From: a virus
Virus genome (UHGV): UHGV-0258858
Direction: 5' to 3' (one strand)
Length of the DNA: 13,232 nucleotides
Made by a program: the position numbers and the translations under genes. The notes beneath the pieces were generated by a model. It was given only the letters and a program-made list of their open reading frames with translations. It did no database searches and had not been told where the DNA came from. Positions 1 through 13,232 of the stretch are shown here, piece by piece (within the stretch, counting starts at the first letter, position 1; every line of letters starts with the position of its first letter).

Positions 1-849
1 CTGGTCATCAAACCCTTTCGTTGCGGCCTCGTTCGCCGCCTGCAATGCCCCGGCTTCATCGCCGGAACGCTGCAACTGAGCAACATACGCAATCTGCTCT
101 GCCGTCACGTTACGGAACTGGCGCGCCATCGCCATCAGTCCCGACGTCGGGTCAGTGGCCAGCTTCCCGAAGGCTTCAGCGACTTTATCCACCTCCACAC
201 CGGATGCAGACGCAAAACGCGCGACACTCTGGTTAATGGCATCAAACTGTTCACCACCACGCACACCGGCATTCACCAGGGCTGCCAGTGACTCTCCCGC
301 CTGGTTAAACGTCAGCCCTGCTGCCTGCCCGGCTCTTGAGAGCGTCAGCATACGATCGGCAGTCAGTCCGGCCTGATTGCCGGAAAGGACCAGCGTTTTA
401 TTAAATTCTGAAAGCGTGGAATCCCCCTGGTACCAGGCGTACGCCAGCGCACCGGTCGCCACCGCCAGCGAGGTGACCCCGACCATCGGCAGGCTGATCG
501 CACCGGCAAGCCCCCTGAACATGGGGATCATCCCGCCGAAGGAGTCCTTCACCTGACCGCCCTGTTGCAGCAGGATGAGCCAGGGATTCTGACCACCGGC
601 AAGCTGCGTGGCGATATCCGTAAACTGTGCGGGCAGGGTACGCATGGCTGCTTTATACTGCCCGACGGAAATCCCGGCTTTTTGTGCGGCCAGCGCCTGA
701 CGGTTCAGACTCTGCTCAACGGCACCGGCGGTTTTTCTGGCGTCGGTATCCAGTCCTGAAAAATGACGCCTTACCCGGCTCATCTGCTCATCGAAACGGA
801 CAGCATCCAGACTCAGGTCAATAACAAGATCACCAACCGGCTGGGACAT
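1..849 (-). CDS. H: Tail tape measure protein (lambda gpH-like), N-terminal 283 codons; gene continues beyond the window start
   Basis: ATG at 849-847 preceded by GGAGG (minus strand GGAGGTGTGAGATATG). Translation MSQPVGDLVIDLSLDAVRFDEQMSRVRRHFSG...AANEAATKGFDDQ closely matches the lambda gpH N-terminus as recalled. Frame stays open to position 1. Start overlaps the end of the G-T frame by 20 nt. Confidence 0.9.
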   Translation of the reverse strand, partial: MSQPVGDLVIDLSLDAVRFDEQMSRVRRHFSGLDTDARKTAGAVEQSLNRQALAAQKAGISVGQYKAAMRTLPAQFTDIATQLAGGQNPWLILLQQGGQVKDSFGGMIPMFRGLAGAISLPMVGVTSLAVATGALAYAWYQGDSTLSEFNKTLVLSGNQAGLTADRMLTLSRAGQAAGLTFNQAGESLAALVNAGVRGGEQFDAINQSVARFASASGVEVDKVAEAFGKLATDPTSGLMAMARQFRNVTAEQIAYVAQLQRSGDEAGALQAANEAATKGFDDQ

Positions 850-1701
850 ATCTCACACCTCCGGAAATCCCCGCTGAAGCCATCATTAATGCAACATCAT
901 CCTCGCTGACATCCACCACATCTGCAGAAGGTGAAATATCGCCCCCTCCCTCCCCACCGAACCGGACGCCTCCGGCAAGTCCTGCCGCTTTCTGCATCAG
1001 CATGTCTTCCTCATCCGGCATCTCCGTCTGCGCTTCCTCTCGCCGGGGAGCCAGCAGACTGAAATCCGAGGGATGCATATCCGGATCGCAAAAAAACAGG
1101 CTGAGTACGGCGTACATCAGCCCGGAAAAATGCATATCCAGTTGGGTATCCTGAAAATAATGCGTGCGGTAAAAACGGTGCCAGTCGGCATATTCGGTGG
1201 ATGTCATCCCGGCAAGCATGGCGCGCCAGTCGGGTCTCCCCATCTCACGCGCCAGTCTGAGGGCAAAGTTCAGCTCGCCGTCGAAGACTTTCCCGCAGAA
1301 AAATCATCATCAGTAAGCACGTTATTTTTCGCCACTTCGGTGCTGTCAGTATCCGCATGAACAGCCCCGCTCATCCCGGACAGACGTAACACCACCTCTT
1401 CCGCCCGGGCAATGGCATCAGCCGGCCAGGTCGTCAGCACATCCTGTTCGATCTGCATCACGGCCTCATTCATTGACAGCAGCTGCACTTTCTCCGGATG
1501 GTTATGCCACAGGGACATCGCCACCAGAAACGCGCCGGTTCTGACAAGATCTTCCACACTCACCTGCAGGTTGCCGCTGGCTTCAGCCTCTTCTGCCCGC
1601 CGTTTCAGCAGGGCAAGATGCTCGATACGCTGCAGCGCAGACAGCTCCGAAAGCGTGACAGACACACCGTTATATTCAAATTGTTCTGTTTTAAGAAACA
1701 T
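830..1701 (-). CDS. T: Tail assembly chaperone G-T fusion product made by programmed -1 frameshift (lambda gpGT-like); T-domain frame runs 830..1294
   Basis: The -1 frame following the slippery site reads KVFDGELNFALRLAREMGRPDWRAMLAGMTSTEYADWHRFY...GGVRYVPAGW (tracked ORF 830..1243), matching the lambda gpT domain. It has no independent start near the slip site. Confidence 0.8.
1270..1701 (-). CDS. G: Tail assembly chaperone (lambda gpG-like), 143 aa
   Basis: ATG at 1701 preceded by AGGAGA at 7-nt spacing. Product MFLKTEQFEYNGVSVTLSELSALQRIEHLALL... aligns with lambda gpG along its length. The 6 codons upstream in the tracked ORF start from a GTG with no ribosome-binding site and are rejected. 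Confidence 0.9.
   Translation of the reverse strand: MFLKTEQFEYNGVSVTLSELSALQRIEHLALLKRRAEEAEASGNLQVSVEDLVRTGAFLVAMSLWHNHPEKVQLLSMNEAVMQIEQDVLTTWPADAIARAEEVVLRLSGMSGAVHADTDSTEVAKNNVLTDDDFSAGKSSTAS
1288..1294 (-). promoter_or_regulatory. Programmed -1 ribosomal frameshift slippery heptamer G GGA AAG at the G/T junction
   Basis: Minus-strand GCG GGA AAG sits 7 codons before the G stop, the same heptamer and position used for lambda G-T frameshifting. The T-domain frame is open immediately downstream in -1. Confidence 0.8.
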
Positions 1702-1722: not shown

Positions 1723-2811
1723 TTACGCGGCAGGGACATTAACGGTTACTGTCGCCAGAGCGACAAAATTACCGTTATCACTCATGACCACGACCGACGT
1801 TGTTCCTTTCTCAAGTGCGTTTACCGTCACTGTGTTCTCCTTCAACGTGGCTGTGGCCACCGCACGATGCACGGTCGACACCCTTAATGAAGGATCAGAC
1901 GCATTATCCGGCAACACAGCCACAGTAAGTGTGCCTGCCTTCCCTTTTTCTAGGGTCAGGGTTTCCGGTTTAATGGTCACACCGGAAACCGGCGTAATTT
2001 TAGTGAGATTTTCAGCCATCGACGGGCGTCCCACATTGGTAACTTTCACCGTTCTGGTGATCACTTCCTTCGCCGTCACGGCCTTACCGATACTGCTGAC
2101 CCAGCCACTGAACACATCCACCGTACCATTCGGGAACCGGATTTTATAGGCCCTGACATCCCCGCTTTCAAACCATGCGATAAGCCCTTTCTGACCTTTC
2201 TCACCCGGTTTCCAGGCCAGCGTAAAACTGGTATCACCTGCAGATTTCTGTCCCTGCCCGGTCGCGGTCCAGTCCGCGTCTTCATCATCCAGGTAGTTAT
2301 CATCGTAGGATTCAGCCGTCATCTCGCCCGGCGTCAGATCCTTCACCTTAGCCAGTCGCTGCCAGTCATCGTCTGACAACGGGTTTGCATAAGCATCAGC
2401 CTTGCCGTTGTAAACCCACAGAGTGGTACCGGCACCTTTTACCGGCTCCAGGGGATTTGGTGTTGCCATATCGTCATCACGATGATACTCATAGCCCTGC
2501 GTAACCATCGTGGTAATCAGTCCTGCCAGTGCCGGGATCGCAGTCATCGCCGGATAAATCCGGCTTTCCATCCACTGATCGAGCTCCGAATCAGGTACCT
2601 GTGCCGGTAAAAACACCTCAATATGCAGTGTGGCCCGCCAGGTATCTGCATCCAGCTCTTCACCGGTATACTCTGCATCCGTCAGATAAACCGCGATCGC
2701 AGGAAAATCCTCTTCGTCAAAAACAACGGGGCGACCATCAAACAGCGTCGCCCCGTGTTCATGCTGCTCGAGTGCATCCAGCACTGCGGCACGAATGTCA
2801 GTGTGTTTCAT
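1723..2811 (-). CDS. Single 362-codon ORF: tail terminator (lambda gpU-like, residues 1-114, 2470..2811) fused in frame to major tail protein with C-terminal Ig-like domain (lambda gpV-like, 248 aa, 1723..2469)
   Basis: N-terminus [28 protein letters not shown]...[10 protein letters not shown] matches lambda gpU residues 1-114. It is followed directly by [20 protein letters not shown]...VTVNVPAA, which matches lambda gpV from its initiator Met. There is no stop, intergenic spacer or ribosome-binding site between the two parts. The U start overlaps the Z stop (ATGA). Confidence 0.85.
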
Positions 2812-3969: not shown

Positions 3970-4086
3970 TTACCACTCAGACACACGTTGAGCAATATCC
4001 GCAGCACTCCCCGACATATCCGCCTCTCGCCCCAGCAGGCCAGCCAGTTCACGAAGGCGATTCAGATTTTCTTCTTTTGTTGCCAT
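3970..4086 (-). CDS. FI: N-terminal portion of DNA-packaging protein FI (lambda gpFI-like), 38 aa, ended by an in-frame TAA
   Basis: ATG at 4086 preceded by AGGAGA at 7-nt spacing. MATKEENLNRLRELAGLLGREADMSGSAADIAQRVSEW resembles the lambda FI N-terminus (MTKDELIARLRSLGEQLNRD...LALRVAEL). TAA at 3970-3972. Not in the ORF track because it is shorter than the cut-off. Confidence 0.6.
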   Translation of the reverse strand: MATKEENLNRLRELAGLLGREADMSGSAADIAQRVSEW

Positions 4087-4137: not shown

Positions 4138-5166
4138 TTATTTCACCTGCACCACCACAAACTCATCCGGATCCGGCAGCACCATCAGCGGTGCGGACTG
4201 CGTCATGGTGAATTCACGGGCCGGATCGCCCACAGTCAGCCAGTGTTTCGGATAACGGGAAGAGGCCACCACACCTTCGGACAACGCCTGCGCATCCTGA
4301 ATGGCACCATAGCAACGAATGCCCTCTGCTGCCGTATTCCCCAGGACCAGTGTGCCCTCCGGCAGATAACGTTTTTCGGTACCGTCCTCTGCCACATAAG
4401 ACGTTTTCGCCACCACAATGGCCAGATCGCCGTAATACCCCTTGAAGGACACCACCGCCCCCAGGTCTTTCACTGCCGTTTCGAGTTGTGAATTTGAGCC
4501 GCGACGGGTATCCAGGTTTTCGCGGAACAGCTTAAAGCCATTCAGCAGACGCCAGACCGTACCGTCCATAATGGCGATATTCACAAGGCCGCTGGCCTGA
4601 TCGCAGTAGAGGTCAATATCATGCGTCGGATCAAACGTATCACGGTCCTGCTCAGACCATTTTTTACCGTCAGCCTGCTCAATGTTATTTCCTTCAGAGC
4701 GCCCGAAATCCACCTCGACAGTATCAAACTGATCCCCTTCCATGGTGTATTTGCCATACAGCACGGCATTCACCGCCTGCATTTCTTCCACCTGGACAAT
4801 GGCGTGCTCTTCCTGTTTGAGGTTATCGGTAATGATACGCAGACGACGGTAGGCCGGGTCGTTCAGCTGAGCCGGATCTTCACCGGGAAGGCGCTCAACC
4901 GCCTGCTGGTAATTAAATTCGTGTTTCGGCTTAACGTAGCCCGGACGTAACACGCGGGTTTCACCACCGCGATGGCGAAGCACTTTTCCTTCAACGATCG
5001 GGGAGACATAGGCCGCCACCGGCGTTTTTCCGGTAATTTTGTCCAGCATCACCTCTTCGGTGTGGAAATTCACCGTACGGCGGAAAAACAGCTCCAGAAA
5101 CAGCGCACGGAATTTAACTTTTTGTTCGGTATAACCGAGTAACTGGCGGGTCGTAAACAATCCCAT
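4138..5166 (-). CDS. E: Major capsid protein (lambda gpE-like), 342 aa
   Basis: MGLFTTRQLLGYTEQKVKF...PGYVKPKHE...VQVEEMQAV...KYTMEGDQFD...LDTRRGSNSQLETAVKDLG...GDPAREFTMTQSAPLMVLPDPDEFVVVQVK is collinear with lambda gpE (341 aa). AGGA ribosome-binding site 8 nt upstream of the ATG. Confidence 0.95.
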   Translation of the reverse strand: MGLFTTRQLLGYTEQKVKFRALFLELFFRRTVNFHTEEVMLDKITGKTPVAAYVSPIVEGKVLRHRGGETRVLRPGYVKPKHEFNYQQAVERLPGEDPAQLNDPAYRRLRIITDNLKQEEHAIVQVEEMQAVNAVLYGKYTMEGDQFDTVEVDFGRSEGNNIEQADGKKWSEQDRDTFDPTHDIDLYCDQASGLVNIAIMDGTVWRLLNGFKLFRENLDTRRGSNSQLETAVKDLGAVVSFKGYYGDLAIVVAKTSYVAEDGTEKRYLPEGTLVLGNTAAEGIRCYGAIQDAQALSEGVVASSRYPKHWLTVGDPAREFTMTQSAPLMVLPDPDEFVVVQVK

Positions 5167-5607: not shown

Positions 5608-7113
5608 TCATGGCATGGCCATGAGCATTTTCACGTCCGCATCACCGTCTGCTGACGTCTGTGACACGCCACCCTGCACGGCTGCCGGTGAATGGTTCGC
5701 CATGAAATGTTCAAACAGGGCGGTTGTGGATGCAGAGACCGGTTCTGCTTTATCCGGCAATGAGGACAGAATGTCGCGGGCAGCCTCCACCGTCATTCCG
5801 GGAAACGCCGCCAGTTTTTCAGCCTGCGCCTCAGCCCCTTTTGCCTCATCCAGAGCCATAATCTGATCACGGAGTGAGGGTCCGGCATCCGCCTGCGGTG
5901 AAGCCGCCAGGATCGGGCGGGCTTTTTCCACCGTCATCTCCGGCATCGCCGCCAGCGTTGCCGCCAGTTGTTCACGACCTTTAGCCTCTTCACACGCCAT
6001 AATGCGATCGGCTTCACTCTGCGTGGATGCCACCGGCTGCTGTGGTGCTGCCGCGGTCAGAATCGCCCGGGCCTGTTCAACGCTCATGCCCTGTTGTCCT
6101 GCCAGCATCGTGGCAAGGTGTTCACGTCCTTTCGCTTCCTGACACGTCAGGATCCCCATCACTCGCTGGTTCTCCTGCGCGGCAGCTTCCGTTGCAGTTA
6201 ATTGCGGCATAGTGCCTCCTGTATCATGTGTGTTCAGCGCCGCAGCCATCACGCTGATGGCATCCGACGCATTGATTAATTCATCCGCCAGCCCGGCCTC
6301 AATGCCGGACTGACCTTCAAAAACGGCGGCCTCTGTTCCCGTGACTGCATCAACAGACAGACCGGTATACATCGCCACTTTTTCGGCAAACATCCGGCGC
6401 GCCGCATCAATCCGCTGCTGCATGTCCTGGCGAACCTCTTCCGGCAACGCTTCAAACCGATTGCCATCCACCTTGTGCGCCCCTGAGTAAATCAGCGTGA
6501 TATCCACACCGGCCTGCGCCAGATGACCGGCATAGCTGACATGGCTCATCATCACGCCAATGGAGCCGATACGGGATGTCTGGGTAACCAGCCGTCGGGA
6601 GCAGGCCGACGCCAGCAGCATGGCTGCAGAACAGGCCGTGTCATTGCACAGTGCCCAGACCGGCTTCTGCTGACGGAGGCGGTAAATCATGTCAGCACAG
6701 TCAAACGCACCGGCGGCCTGCCCGCCCGGACTGTCAATGTCCAGCAGTACACCCCGCACCTGGCTATCCGCCATTGCCTGCTGAAGACAGGCGACAATGC
6801 CGTCATAGCCTGTCATTCCGGAAAATGGCCGCATACCCCCCAGCCGGTGCACCAGCGTGCCTGTCACCGGCAGTACAGCAATACCGTTCACCACCCGGTA
6901 AACACGGGCCGGTCGTTTACCTCCGGCCATGTACTCGTCCGTTTCAGCCAGCATTCCGGGTGCATCAAGCTGTACCTGCTGTTGTGGTACCGAAAGACTT
7001 GCTGCCCCCATCTCGCGCCCGAGCGCGCAAAAGAAAACCCGCGCATAGGCGGGCTCCAGAAGCAGCGGTTCATTGAATGCTGCTGCAATAATGTGTGAAA
7101 GATTACGTCTCAC
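5608..7113 (-). CDS. C: Prohead protease / scaffold (lambda gpC-like, S49 ClpP-fold peptidase N-terminal domain with Nu3-like scaffolding C-terminal region), 501 codons from a GTG start
   Basis: N-terminal LSHIIAAAFNEPLLLEPAYARVFFCAL...VNGIAVLPV(T)GTLV...GMTGYDGI...LLDIDSPGG...AFDCAD...KPVWAL...SRRLVTQTSRIGSIGVMM...VDITLIYSGAHKVDGN aligns with lambda gpC. GTG at 7113 preceded by AGAGGAGA and overlapping the portal stop. Confidence 0.9.
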   Translation of the reverse strand: MRRNLSHIIAAAFNEPLLLEPAYARVFFCALGREMGAASLSVPQQQVQLDAPGMLAETDEYMAGGKRPARVYRVVNGIAVLPVTGTLVHRLGGMRPFSGMTGYDGIVACLQQAMADSQVRGVLLDIDSPGGQAAGAFDCADMIYRLRQQKPVWALCNDTACSAAMLLASACSRRLVTQTSRIGSIGVMMSHVSYAGHLAQAGVDITLIYSGAHKVDGNRFEALPEEVRQDMQQRIDAARRMFAEKVAMYTGLSVDAVTGTEAAVFEGQSGIEAGLADELINASDAISVMAAALNTHDTGGTMPQLTATEAAAQENQRVMGILTCQEAKGREHLATMLAGQQGMSVEQARAILTAAAPQQPVASTQSEADRIMACEEAKGREQLAATLAAMPEMTVEKARPILAASPQADAGPSLRDQIMALDEAKGAEAQAEKLAAFPGMTVEAARDILSSLPDKAEPVSASTTALFEHFMANHSPAAVQGGVSQTSADGDADVKMLMAMP

Positions 7114-8695
7114 GTGGTGTTGTCTCCTCTTCCGGCCTGCGACTCTCCGCTATCTGCTGCTGATACGCCTGCACTATCCACACCGGACGTGAGAGTCCGG
7201 CTTTTTCCCGCTCTGCAGATTCCCTGACCTGCTGGCGGAAAATGTCCTGATAATCCTCGCCCATCAGCGCCAGCTCTTTCTCATACGTGCTCAGTCCGGC
7301 CTCAATGCGCATCACTGATTCCTGAACCTCCTTGAGCCCGTCAATGGCCATTCTTCCGGCTCCAATCCACTCAGCCCGTGACCAGGCTGATCGCGCCTGA
7401 TAAAAATCAAAACGTGCCCGTGGCGGACGAATAATCCCCCGAAGAAGTGCCTCTTCCAGCCAGCAGGAAAACATCTGCGTGGCCAGCCGGGACGCAATAA
7501 ATTTTCGCCGCCCCATAAAATAGCGCCACGACTCATTGGCGGATGCGCGGGCACTTGAATAACTGACCTTCGAGTAATCACGGGACAACTGTTCGTAGGA
7601 AACGCCAAGACCGGCGGCGATATACCGCAGCAGCGCCTGTTCAAGCGCCGAAAATCCATTGTCTGAATCCTGCGCGGTCTGAAGTTTCAGATCATCACCG
7701 GGGAAAAGGTGCGGAATTTTGACACCGCCCAGCGTCACGCTATTCGTGTCATACCAGGTGGAGAACTTATCCAGAATATTAATAAGCGGATTATCCTTCT
7801 GCCCCTGCGGCGCACCGGCGATATATTCAAAGGCCTTTTCGGTATCAAGGTCACTTTCAATCGTCGCTGCATACATCGCCTTCACTATGGCCGACTGAAG
7901 CTGTGTTGCCTGCAGGGAATCCAGCATCTTCAGCCGTTCCATAACGCTGTAAAACTGATTGGCTCCACGGGTCTGCCCGTCCTCCACCGGCTCGAAAATA
8001 TGCAGCATGGCCGGACGCCCGGTGGGAAGTTCACGCGGGATCCGTTCCCATCGTCCACTCCCGGAGCGAGGAAAATCATCCTCACAGATATGGTACGCAA
8101 CGGCACGGCCATATCGATCAACCTCCACACCGGCCCGCAGAAAACGGTTCCCGATACCGTGTCCTGGCGTGTCCACCCGTTTCGGACTCACGGCTTTAAA
8201 ACGCGTACGAAACAGTTGCGTGCTCTCCGTATCCCAGACCGGCTGCACAAAGATTTCGCCGTTAAACGCATGAACGCCCACACCTTCACGGATAAATTCC
8301 GTAAACGTGCGTTTCCCTTCCACGTCGATCTCACCAAACATCCCTTCTGCGTATTCTGACCAGGCCGCCTCCACCTCATCGACAAAACTTTTTGCCGCGG
8401 TCTCCCGCATCCCCAGCCAGCGCCAGTTCGGACGGTAGCTAATCAGAAACATATGCCCGACAATGTGATCCTTATGCAGGGCCACCGCATTGGCCGCTAT
8501 TCCGTTATTGCGCACCAGATCATCTGCACGGGCATTCCCCAGACGCAACGCGGGCAGCAGGGCCGCATCGGCACTCTGCGAGGGTGGCAACCACTCTGCC
8601 ATTTGCCCGCCAAATCCTGCGCCGCCCCCGTTGTAGCTTAGGCTCTCCCGAAGCGGAACGCCGTTCACATCAATCAGGACAGGCGTTCGTTTCAT
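7103..8695 (-). CDS. B: Portal protein (lambda gpB-like), 530 aa
   Basis: MKRTPVLI...FEPVEDGQTRGANQFYSVMERLKMLDSLQATQLQSAIVKAMYAATIESDLD...SYEQLSRDYSKVSYSSARASANESW...RMAIDGLKEVQESVMRIEAGLSTYEKE is collinear with lambda gpB (533 aa). Confidence 0.95.
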   Translation of the reverse strand: MKRTPVLIDVNGVPLRESLSYNGGGAGFGGQMAEWLPPSQSADAALLPALRLGNARADDLVRNNGIAANAVALHKDHIVGHMFLISYRPNWRWLGMRETAAKSFVDEVEAAWSEYAEGMFGEIDVEGKRTFTEFIREGVGVHAFNGEIFVQPVWDTESTQLFRTRFKAVSPKRVDTPGHGIGNRFLRAGVEVDRYGRAVAYHICEDDFPRSGSGRWERIPRELPTGRPAMLHIFEPVEDGQTRGANQFYSVMERLKMLDSLQATQLQSAIVKAMYAATIESDLDTEKAFEYIAGAPQGQKDNPLINILDKFSTWYDTNSVTLGGVKIPHLFPGDDLKLQTAQDSDNGFSALEQALLRYIAAGLGVSYEQLSRDYSKVSYSSARASANESWRYFMGRRKFIASRLATQMFSCWLEEALLRGIIRPPRARFDFYQARSAWSRAEWIGAGRMAIDGLKEVQESVMRIEAGLSTYEKELALMGEDYQDIFRQQVRESAEREKAGLSRPVWIVQAYQQQIAESRRPEEETTPRET

Positions 8696-8896
8696 AACCT
8701 CACTCCCAGCGGACGACGGCGACGGCGGGTTGTCCCCAGTACCGACTCCGCATCATTGAGCCCGGTTAAGCTCATCCAGAGAAGCTGCCGTATATTCAAT
8801 TCTGCGACCATCTTTCTGGACAGACACCACCCGTTTACCGGTTAATAAATCAAGGCGCGCCTGACGCAGCGCCTGCAGTTCAGCGACTGTAACCAT
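8692..8896 (-). pseudogene. W: Head-tail joining protein W (lambda gpW-like) split across two reading frames by an apparent frameshift
   Basis: Frame a: ATG at 8896 (GGAGGAG ribosome-binding site) gives [47 protein letters not shown], then a stop at 8753-8755; this matches lambda gpW residues about 4-50. Frame b (+1): ...[21 protein letters not shown] ends in a TGA that overlaps the portal ATG (ATGA) and matches the lambda gpW C-terminus (...[21 protein letters not shown]). One gene, two frames. Confidence 0.6.
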
Positions 8897-10808
8897 TCAC
8901 TCCTCCGGACAGCTTCGCTGCCAGTTCTTTAAGGGTTGGCCGGGTCGTCTCTTCTTCCCGGGATTTTGCCAGTACAGCCAGATCAAGCTGCCAGCGTTGC
9001 ACGGACACACGTAATGCCGCGTAGGCATACACCAGGCAGTCCAGCGCTTCGTTACGCCGCTTTTTGTTATCCCACAGCAGACGCATCTTTCCTTTTTCCC
9101 ACTTCTCCACAAGCTCTTCCGCCACCAGTTGCTGCGCCTCTGTCTGCGAAAAAATCTCCGGATCATCAGGAAAACGGATGGCATACGACGTGGCTTCATC
9201 CGCAGGCGTGGGATCGGCTTTCATACGGGCATAGAGAATTTCTTTTGCGGTGTCCGTCCCCACTTCGCACAGATACACGCCCCGCTGATTGCGGGTTTTT
9301 GGCATGGTGATCACCGGCTTGCCATAAACAGATGCACCTTTTACCGGCAGCCCCCGGAAAACACCGTGTTTTTTTGACCTCTGATAGACAATTTCGCCAT
9401 CGATCCCCCCGGTGTCCCAGCAGACACGGGAAATGGTCATTTCGGTTCCGTCTGCATGGCGGTATTTTTTGTTGATCGCCACATCCACACGTAACAGCGT
9501 CTCTTCCTCATCGGGACGCCCCATAATGATGATTTTATCCACCAGAAAGGCTTCCTCTCCCGGAGCCCATCCCCAGACATACATCTCAAAACGGTTTCGC
9601 TGCGAGTCAATGCCCGCCGTCAGATAAACCACCCGGGCAGGCACCGCCGCCGTGTAACGCACAACCTTATCCATCAGTACCTGGTGATCGAGTTTTTCGC
9701 CCACGGCCTCTTCCCAGGTCTCGCCCAGCGTGGTGTTCACAAAGGTTTTCAGGCCGTTGGGATCTTTCAGTGCATCCAGCCAGTCATAGACAATCTGTAC
9801 CCAGGTGGTGAACGGACTGTACGCCGTCCAGATATGGAATGTGATGGAGCGCGGCGGCGGAATTTCATTACCCGCAGCGCTGAAAAACGTCAGGCCGTCA
9901 CGGGTCCACATGCCCGTGTTTTCACAGATCCACCGCCCGTTGCTCTGGTCAAGATCAGACTGATGGATCACGCAGCCATGATGTTCACAGAGGTAGAAAA
10001 CACTTTCTGGACTGTCCTTCTCCCATTTAAGGCCAAAAGGCGTGGACTCATCGCCAAATTTCAGATACTGCGCCTCCCCACAGTGTGGGCAGGGCACATA
10101 AAAACGCATGAAATGCGCCGACTCGTTGGCCGCTTTTTCGATCTGGCAGGAGCCTTTTATTTTAGGCGTCGAGCCGCGAATGGATTTTGGCCATACCGAG
10201 CCCTCAATACGCTTATCCCCCAGCAGGGTTGGCGAGCCCTCTTTTTCGACATCCGGCTCGAACGAGGAAAGTTCGTCATAGCAGACCACGTCCACGGATT
10301 TTTCACGGTAGTTTTTTGCTGCCGCACCACCCAGGCACCAGAAGCCCACCCCCGATGAAAAGCGTTTCAGCGTGAGAGTATTGTCACGATGTTTACGACC
10401 CAGCCACGGGGAAAGATCTTTCAGGCATGGCACGTCCCGAATCGTCGCCTCCACGTGAGACTTCATAAAATCTTCAGCGGCAGAATCCGTGGGCTGAAAA
10501 AGCAGACTGTTTCGGGATTTATGCTCAATAAAATACCCGGCGACTCCCAGCAACATCTTTGTATAGCCAACACGGGCAGATTTAATCAGATTAACAGTGC
10601 GGATCTGATCATTCCCCATACTGTTCATGATGGCGATCTGGAACGGCAGCGTTTTCCATTCGCCGTCACCGTATGAGGATTCTTTCGGCAGATAATAATA
10701 CTGGTCAGCCCATTCAACTGCCGTCATCGGTACAACCCTGACCAGAGGCTGCAGCGCAACCGAAACGGCGGCCACCATATTATTCAGTTGTTGCTCTGAT
10801 ATATTCAT
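8880..10808 (-). CDS. A: Terminase large subunit (lambda gpA-like), 642 aa
   Basis: [10 protein letters not shown]...[37 protein letters not shown]...[32 protein letters not shown]...[26 protein letters not shown]...CPHCGE.QYLKFGD...[18 protein letters not shown]...[11 protein letters not shown]...KRRNEALDC is collinear with lambda gpA (641 aa). Start chosen by alignment; the 19-codon upstream extension in the tracked ORF overlaps Nu1 and is rejected. Start overlaps the Nu1 3' end by 29 nt, as in lambda. Confidence 0.95.
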
Positions 10809-11286
10809 CGAGTAAATCCGGTAATTTATCCCCCGCCCGCGCACACTGATTTGCCCCCTTCGCAATAAGGGTTTTCAGATGGTCAAGATGGCGCGGTGTT
10901 AAATCAGGAAACTGTCGCTGCATGGATAACGGAATGGAATCAAGCGTACTGGACAATGCCATCGCCAGTTTGCTGAGGGCGAAAACGCAGAAGTCTGAAT
11001 CGATGAGCTTACCTTCGGTTACCTGATTTTTAAGTTTTTGAGCTACAGCCTGTTCTTCTGTCAGTTCAGCTCTGGCCCGAAGCAGCCTTTCCTCCAGTTC
11101 TCCCCCGTCATCAGGTGTTCTCTGATTGTGTTGTCGCCGCTCGCGATCTATCTCCAGTACAGTTTTAACGTCATATAAAACTTCCCTCCCCCGACGTTCA
11201 ACAGGAGGAACGCCCCATTTATCAAATGCCTGAACAGAGATACCGATGGAGGAGGCCATATCACTTTTATTCAATAAAAAGGCCAT
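10780..11286 (-). CDS. Nu1: Terminase small subunit (lambda gpNu1-like), 168 aa
   Basis: ATG at 11286 immediately preceded by GGAGAGGAG. MAFLLNKSDMASSIGISVQAFDKWGVPPVERRGREVLYD... aligns with the lambda Nu1 N-terminal DNA-binding region (MEVNKKQLADIFGASIRTIQNWQEQGMPV...GNEVLYD); C-terminus ...RQFPDLTPRHLDHLKTLIAKGANQ resembles lambda ...RRFPELENRHVDFLKRDIIKAMNK. The 35-codon upstream extension in the tracked ORF is rejected. Confidence 0.85.
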   Translation of the reverse strand: MAFLLNKSDMASSIGISVQAFDKWGVPPVERRGREVLYDVKTVLEIDRERRQHNQRTPDDGGELEERLLRARAELTEEQAVAQKLKNQVTEGKLIDSDFCVFALSKLAMALSSTLDSIPLSMQRQFPDLTPRHLDHLKTLIAKGANQCARAGDKLPDLLDEYIRATTE

Positions 11287-12836: not shown

Positions 12837-13232
12837 TTATCTGTCAATTCCCCAGCACGCCAGCGCGCTCTCCTGGTCACGCCGCGATACCTGCCCGTAA
12901 CAGTTATTTGAGCGATTCCGACAGTCCCTGCCGCCGTCATATATCCATCGGCGGATTTCAGCACATGCACCTTTCCGGTCTCCGGCGTTCAGTTTCCGGT
13001 AAAACGTTGAGGTGAAGCATTTCGAAGGCCCGATGTTGTACGGACAGAATGACGCGATGCCCGCTTTCTGCGGTTCAGTCAGTGGCAATTTGATGTTTTT
13101 CTCCACCCATGCCAGCGCCTTATCACGTTCAATGGCATTAACCTGAGCGCATTTTTCCTTCGACAACTTCATGCCCGGGACGACAGGTTTGCCATCCACC
13201 ATGATGGCACCACGGCAGATGGTCCAGATACC
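12837..13232 (-). CDS. R: Endolysin, T4/phage-21-type lysozyme (glycoside hydrolase family 24), C-terminal 131 codons; 5' end lies beyond the window end
   Basis: Frame open from the window edge: GIWTICRGAIMVDGKPVVPGMKLSKEKCAQVNAIERDKALAWVEKNIKLPLTEPQKAGIASFCPYNIGPSKCFTSTFYRKLNAGDRKGACAEIRRWIYDGGRDC...ALACWGIDR resembles phage 21 R / T4 lysozyme-type endolysins (GVWTVCHG...GACDQLRRWTYAGG). TAA stop at 12837-12839. Confidence 0.9.
   Translation of the reverse strand, partial: GIWTICRGAIMVDGKPVVPGMKLSKEKCAQVNAIERDKALAWVEKNIKLPLTEPQKAGIASFCPYNIGPSKCFTSTFYRKLNAGDRKGACAEIRRWIYDGGRDCRNRSNNCYGQVSRRDQESALACWGIDR

Follow-up and report, generated by a model that had tools for sequence, protein, structure and literature searches.

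The gene for the head–tail joining protein gpW in the virus genome UHGV-0258858 lies in two pieces in two reading frames, which raises the question of whether it was broken by mutation, misread by sequencing, or encodes its product in some other way. The window, by which we mean the whole stretch of DNA analysed (13,232 nucleotides), matched MEGAHIT contig k141_1491 of ENA assembly ERZ27281170 base for base and is therefore a short-read metagenome contig. No attachment sites were found on this 13-kb contig, and its relatives are chromosomal. The genes run on the minus strand in the order large terminase, W and portal, in agreement with the original prediction. The features at the locus are the following:

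8880..10808, minus strand: large terminase subunit, gpA-like, 642 residues, intact, with its ATG at 10808 and its stop at 8882..8880 (residues counted to the first stop; annotation of relatives; codons from the sequence).
8900..8906, minus strand: Shine–Dalgarno sequence GGAGGAG of W, within the 3' end of the terminase gene (sequence).
8896..8692, minus strand: W, broken, gene length 205 bp.
8753..8896, minus strand: N-terminal part of gpW, a 47-residue product (ORF list and translation; Pfam PF02831).
8759..8760, minus strand: junction of a 2-bp deletion (alignments with SCU-106, NCTC9112 and phage 21 gene 3).
8692..8757, minus strand: C-terminal remnant of gpW, 21 codons plus TGA, in the +1 frame (translation; alignment with 1HYW).
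7103..8695, minus strand: portal protein, gpB-like, 530 residues, intact (ORF list; Pfam Phage_portal_2).

The terminase of an identical locus, L007, carried the Pfam domains GpA_ATPase and GpA_nuclease, and the last 17 bases of the terminase gene overlap the start of W. A mechanical ORF list places the terminase at 8880..10865 on the minus strand, with a TTG start at 10865 and 661 residues; relatives and the overlap with Nu1 identify ATG 10808 (642 residues) as the real start.

Translation upheld the two-frame layout of W and adjusted the sizes of its pieces. The strong ribosome-binding site that had been proposed is present as GGAGGAG at 8906..8900, ahead of the W ATG, and the phage 21 record M81255 annotates the ribosome-binding site of gene 3 at the same position. 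Frame a runs from ATG 8896..8894 to a premature TGA at 8755..8753, and the N-terminal piece predicted to hold 47 codons comprises 46 native codons and one aberrant Gln. The C-terminal piece exists as well, with 21 codons instead of about 20, and is read in the +1 frame over 8757..8692; its stop, TGA 8694..8692, overlaps the portal ATG at 8695..8693 as ATGA, as had been noticed. We take lambda W to end likewise in an ATGA overlap with the portal start. In terms of the protein, the remnant corresponds to the end of helix 2 plus the portal-binding C-arm (domain limits from PMC10721106).

Matches to Pfam PF02831 and PDB 1HYW bore out the claimed homology of both pieces to lambda gpW. The 47-residue product alone scored 58 bits against PF02831, covering profile positions 3–43 of 66 (curated cut-off, 22.5 bits). 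With GA restored, W encodes a 68-residue protein identical to WP_000259002.1, which scored 79.9 bits against PF02831 and aligned with lambda gpW in PDB 1HYW over residues 4–66 (E = 3e-15). The location between terminase and portal and the ATGA coupling to the portal are those of the gpW family; the single frame of ~68 codons that would include helix 2 and the C-arm is interrupted. Since the frame meets a premature TGA after codon 47 and the last 21 codons stand in the +1 frame, the locus is a gpW-family pseudogene and not a functional member.

Alignment to related W genes, which had been proposed as a check, was performed and yielded one lesion, a GA gap at 8760/8759. GA is missing from GCGATCAA, and the window reads GC followed directly by TCAA; the k-mer spanning the deleted junction is CTTAACCGNGCTCAATGATG. 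This was the single gap in the alignments with E. coli SCU-106, E. coli NCTC9112 and phage 21 gene 3. It was the sole difference from SCU-106 over 401 bases, and one of two small indels relative to NCTC9112, the nearest relative. The frame switch, predicted within 8750–8775 near a CCGGGC run, is thereby pinned to 8760 (C)/8759 (T), directly after that run. A 401-base query around W matched 1,863 E. coli records, and the best of the E. coli matches spanned 403 bases. The phage records (19 of 19) also spanned 403 bases per 401 of query and are thus intact at the site. The suggestion that this lineage's homologues may encode W differently was not borne out: the gene was single-frame in all 19 phage records and in 116 of the 119 IMG/VR copies that could be read through, and the two-frame arrangement is accordingly not conserved among these homologues. 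The best explanation, to which we assign a probability of about 0.93, is a genuine loss-of-function W allele in a lambda/phage-21-like E. coli prophage, created by the GA deletion.

The loss of GA destroys a GATC (Dam) site, and methylated Dam sites are known to give systematic long-read base-calling errors. The window being a metagenome contig, its gap might accordingly reflect a sequencing error at the Dam site or an error of MEGAHIT, with the real W intact. The contig is, however, a short-read MEGAHIT assembly, and an independent run has the same sequence: the assembly of SRR7351995 (L011) showed one mismatch and no gap over 8,732 bases against the window, deletion included. An exact look-up in NCBI, ENA and Logan returned at least 15 contigs, taken from different samples, that encode the identical 47-residue product and have the same junction. 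The same GA deletion was present in the finished genome of E. coli O150:H6 FEX669, where the gene has the PGAP annotation "frameshifted", and a dozen assemblies besides L011 and FEX669 have it as well. Near-identical alleles are intact in most assemblies, so the error would not be systematic, and the carriers form clonal groups with other mutations in common, which fits inheritance. Two more specific versions were also discarded, namely a long-read error at the Dam site (the contig is short-read and independent runs agree) and a window-wide change of GATC sites, since only 2 of ~45 differences from NCTC9112 touch GATC, without a pattern. One of these two stands three bases from the contig end, at window position 13230, where TATC replaces the GATC of NCTC9112 and may be a contig-end assembly error. 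We regard the artefact reading as largely refuted and very improbable. Of the two options originally offered, frameshift mutation or sequencing indel, the former is favoured, the latter being contradicted by the independent run, FEX669 and the other assemblies; on the agreement among assemblies, the GA loss is judged to be a genuine inherited mutation.

In IMG/VR, no contig carried the deleted junction, compared with at least 120 with the intact site. Scans of JGI metagenome contigs and of GTDB species representatives each returned zero, and the deletion was absent from the phage records (0 of 19). Among complete E. coli genomes it occupied about one of ~2,978 places, and a 61-base probe across the junction aligned without a 2-base gap to FEX669 only. 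Every other E. coli copy examined or listed was intact. Given the null scans of IMG/VR, JGI and GTDB, the allele is rare outside isolate and Logan assemblies. IMG/VR also contains W variants of other kinds, on contigs L026, L035 and L065: different frame-breaking indels in two of the 119 copies, and, in one copy, a 6-bp loss that keeps the frame and shortens the arginine run from RRRRR to RRR. Other W entries of 46–50 residues in protein clusters, considered as candidate frameshift alleles, turned out to be contig-end partials ending in NRA or NRAI.

The consequence for the protein can be gauged from lambda, whose gpW has helices at residues 4–22 and 37–54, a hairpin at 23–36 and a C-arm at 55–68 that binds gpB by beta-sheet augmentation; in the virion, 12 copies form a 12-mer adaptor ring under the portal (PMC10721106). 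With GA lost from GCGATCAA, ribosomes that initiate at the usual start codon, which is well placed, would terminate after 47 residues. If lambda gpW is taken as a guide, this product would retain helix 1, the beta-hairpin and 10 residues at the beginning of helix 2; the remainder of that helix would be missing, as would the entire portal-docking C-arm. As half of helix 2 and the C-arm are gone from the truncated protein, neither folding nor docking is expected. DNA-filled heads would gain no adaptor ring and would not join tails; judging from lambda structure and genetics, head–tail joining from this W allele should fail.

Such a failure would be averted if ribosomes shifted frame by +1 (or −2) at CAA UGA U, much as in RF2, and so joined the two pieces in translation. 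The product would be a 67-residue W with Gln in place of Ile-Asn, and some adaptor would still be made. The stop codon does lie exactly at the frame junction, a one-base skip gives a protein that matches the whole Pfam gpW profile at 72.3 bits, and a virion needs only 12 gpW copies (PMC10721106). According to codon–anticodon rules, however, tRNA-Gln on CAA should not re-pair on AAU or UCA, and no AGGGGG-type stimulator stands correctly spaced upstream in the sequence. The rarity of the deleted allele also argues against a functional split (none versus at least 120 intact in IMG/VR, 0/19 cultured phages, ~1/~2,978 complete-genome places), as does its company in the window, where two other inactivating lesions occur. 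Programmed frameshifting of the known types (RF2 prfB, +1; lambda G/T, −1) was rejected on slippery codon, stimulator and conservation alike. We therefore give very little credence either to the frameshift or to its 67-residue product, and treat W as inactivated.

The two other lesions emerged from comparison with the NCTC9112 prophage and from domain annotation:

3970..4086, minus strand: FI packaging gene, nonsense-truncated (comparison with NCTC9112).
1723..2811, minus strand: in-frame U–V fusion of tail terminator U and tail tube V, with its junction at ~2465..2480.

The window was 99.7% identical to the NCTC9112 prophage over 13.2 kb, the differences being 42 substitutions, the W deletion, one terminase homopolymer base and a 61-bp deletion. 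NCTC9112 was the best match among complete E. coli genomes, none of which held an exact copy of the window. In FI, codon 39 is changed from GAA to TAA at 3972..3970 (minus strand), which leaves 38 codons compared with 127 in NCTC9112; this stop is common to the window and L011 and was absent from the complete E. coli genomes searched. The U–V fusion was caused by the 61-bp deletion, which lies between the 15-bp direct repeats TGATGACGATATGGC and TGAGGACGATATGGC, of the form TGA(T/G)GACGATATGGC, and takes the last 15 codons of U together with the ribosome-binding site of V. Gene calling gave a single product longer than 362 residues with both Phage_tail_U and Phage_TTP_12, and none of the complete E. 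coli genomes searched has the fusion. The remaining 14 genes in the comparison were full length. With W, FI and U–V, several independent inactivating lesions affect essential morphogenesis genes, and the window is therefore a defective prophage: on its sequence, it is decaying and is predicted to be unable to make infectious particles on its own.

Two further observations concern neighbouring genes. The terminase gene has a run of seven A at window position 9375 and of eight at position 4358 in NCTC9112 (L003), where the gene is annotated as frameshifted; the window copy is intact, and the extra A of NCTC9112 could be either a homopolymer error or a real lesion. Near the end of G (1701..1270) and ahead of T (1243..830), the slippery heptamer GGGAAAG, at which −1 programmed frameshifting usually takes place in tail assembly chaperones of the lambda type, stands at 1294..1288 (minus strand) and appears intact.

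Whether the GA deletion arose once or several times was approached by comparing its carriers over 2.2 kb centred on W. They fell into at least four groups, 44–72 substitutions apart over that distance, on backgrounds that differ by 2–3%:

Group 1: the window and L011; nearest intact relative SCU-106, with 9 differences.
Group 2: L004, L006, L009, L010 and L012, and also L013 and L005; nearest intact relative phage 21.
Group 3: L008; nearest intact relatives 315 complete genomes at least 99% identical.
Group 4: L014; no intact relative among the compared loci, with at least 51 differences from all of them.

Within group 2, L013 differs from phage 21 at 2 sites and L005 at 7, and the five others are clonal, 0–1 sites apart. 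Intact near-twins were found for three of the four groups among the sequences examined (those of L013, the window and L008). For L008, the 12 matches listed differ by GA only, and the intact L008-type allele is present in 15 IMG/VR copies. L008 itself has private markers on both sides of the junction, 3 bp away upstream and 11 bp away downstream, so a recombination tract that moved the deletion would have to be under 14 bp long. For L008, the deletion is more simply read as having recurred independently, which is also likely for the other groups. Taken further, the GA deletion would be a site-specific hotspot and a recurrent decay route, not a one-off lesion, by which lambda-like prophages on at least four backgrounds were disarmed independently, a proposition to which we give about even odds.

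Alternatively, the allele may have a single origin, with homologous recombination or gene conversion then carrying it from one lambdoid prophage to another and no hotspot involved. Lambdoid prophages are mosaic, E. coli genomes hold a median of two and up to five copies of the region, and five of the carriers (L004, L006, L009, L010 and L012) are clonal; in principle, patch repair of heteroduplexes formed between prophages in the same cell could transfer the deletion and leave the flanking markers behind. This scenario has to accommodate carriers on at least four backgrounds with background-specific markers within 27–36 bp of the junction. It must also explain L008, whose markers at 3 and 11 bp leave far less than the identity that RecA exchange needs, and which is otherwise identical to common intact alleles. 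We consider a single origin rather unlikely; it bears on the origin of the allele only and is compatible with the assignment of W as a pseudogene.

If the deletion did recur, the local sequence offers a candidate mechanism. Loss of GA turns TGAGC-N8-GC(GA)TCA into the perfect 5-bp inverted repeat TGAGC-N8-GCTCA, and the predicted DNA hairpin changes from −1.4 to −4.4 kcal/mol, which is ordinary when compared with shuffled sequences (z = −1.5). The quasi-palindrome perfected by the loss may itself template the deletion through a template switch; as the stem is short (5 bp) and the fold energies are unremarkable, such templating is only weakly suggested.

For annotation, these results mean that the locus should be recorded as a gpW pseudogene in a defective prophage and neither as two small genes nor as a new way of encoding W. 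The lesion itself is already known, in that PGAP flags the same deletion in finished FEX669. It adds little to biology, because frameshifted morphogenesis genes are commonplace in decaying E. coli prophages. Wider interest attaches only to the recurrence of the same 2-bp deletion on unrelated backgrounds, which, if true, would constitute a small natural case of a sequence-directed hotspot contributing to prophage inactivation.

Set beside known systems, the window W occupies the same position between terminase and portal as lambda gpW (PDB 1HYW, 8K38) and has 68 codons once repaired; it differs from lambda in that the frame is broken after codon 46 by the 2-bp deletion. In DNA, the window is 97.8–99.5% identical to gene 3 of phage 21, which encodes a head completion protein (M81255), and to the E. 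coli prophage gene for WP_000259002.1, both of which are intact. A direct parallel to the lesion is H7994_RS16550 of FEX669, annotated as a phage head–tail joining protein, which has the same GA deletion and the same 205-bp length as the window W. It lies on a different background, a phage-21-like prophage with 70 differences from the window over 2.2 kb, and the other annotated genes there are intact in a 6-kb stretch that ends inside the protease, with FI, U and V outside it. As to mechanism, quasi-palindromes are template-switch hotspots in E. coli under the Ripley model, and Lovett and colleagues reportedly described one at thyA. Unlike such hotspots, W has a stem of 5 bp only and a fold energy that is ordinary relative to shuffled sequences; like them, its deletion perfects an imperfect inverted repeat and recurs identically on different backgrounds.
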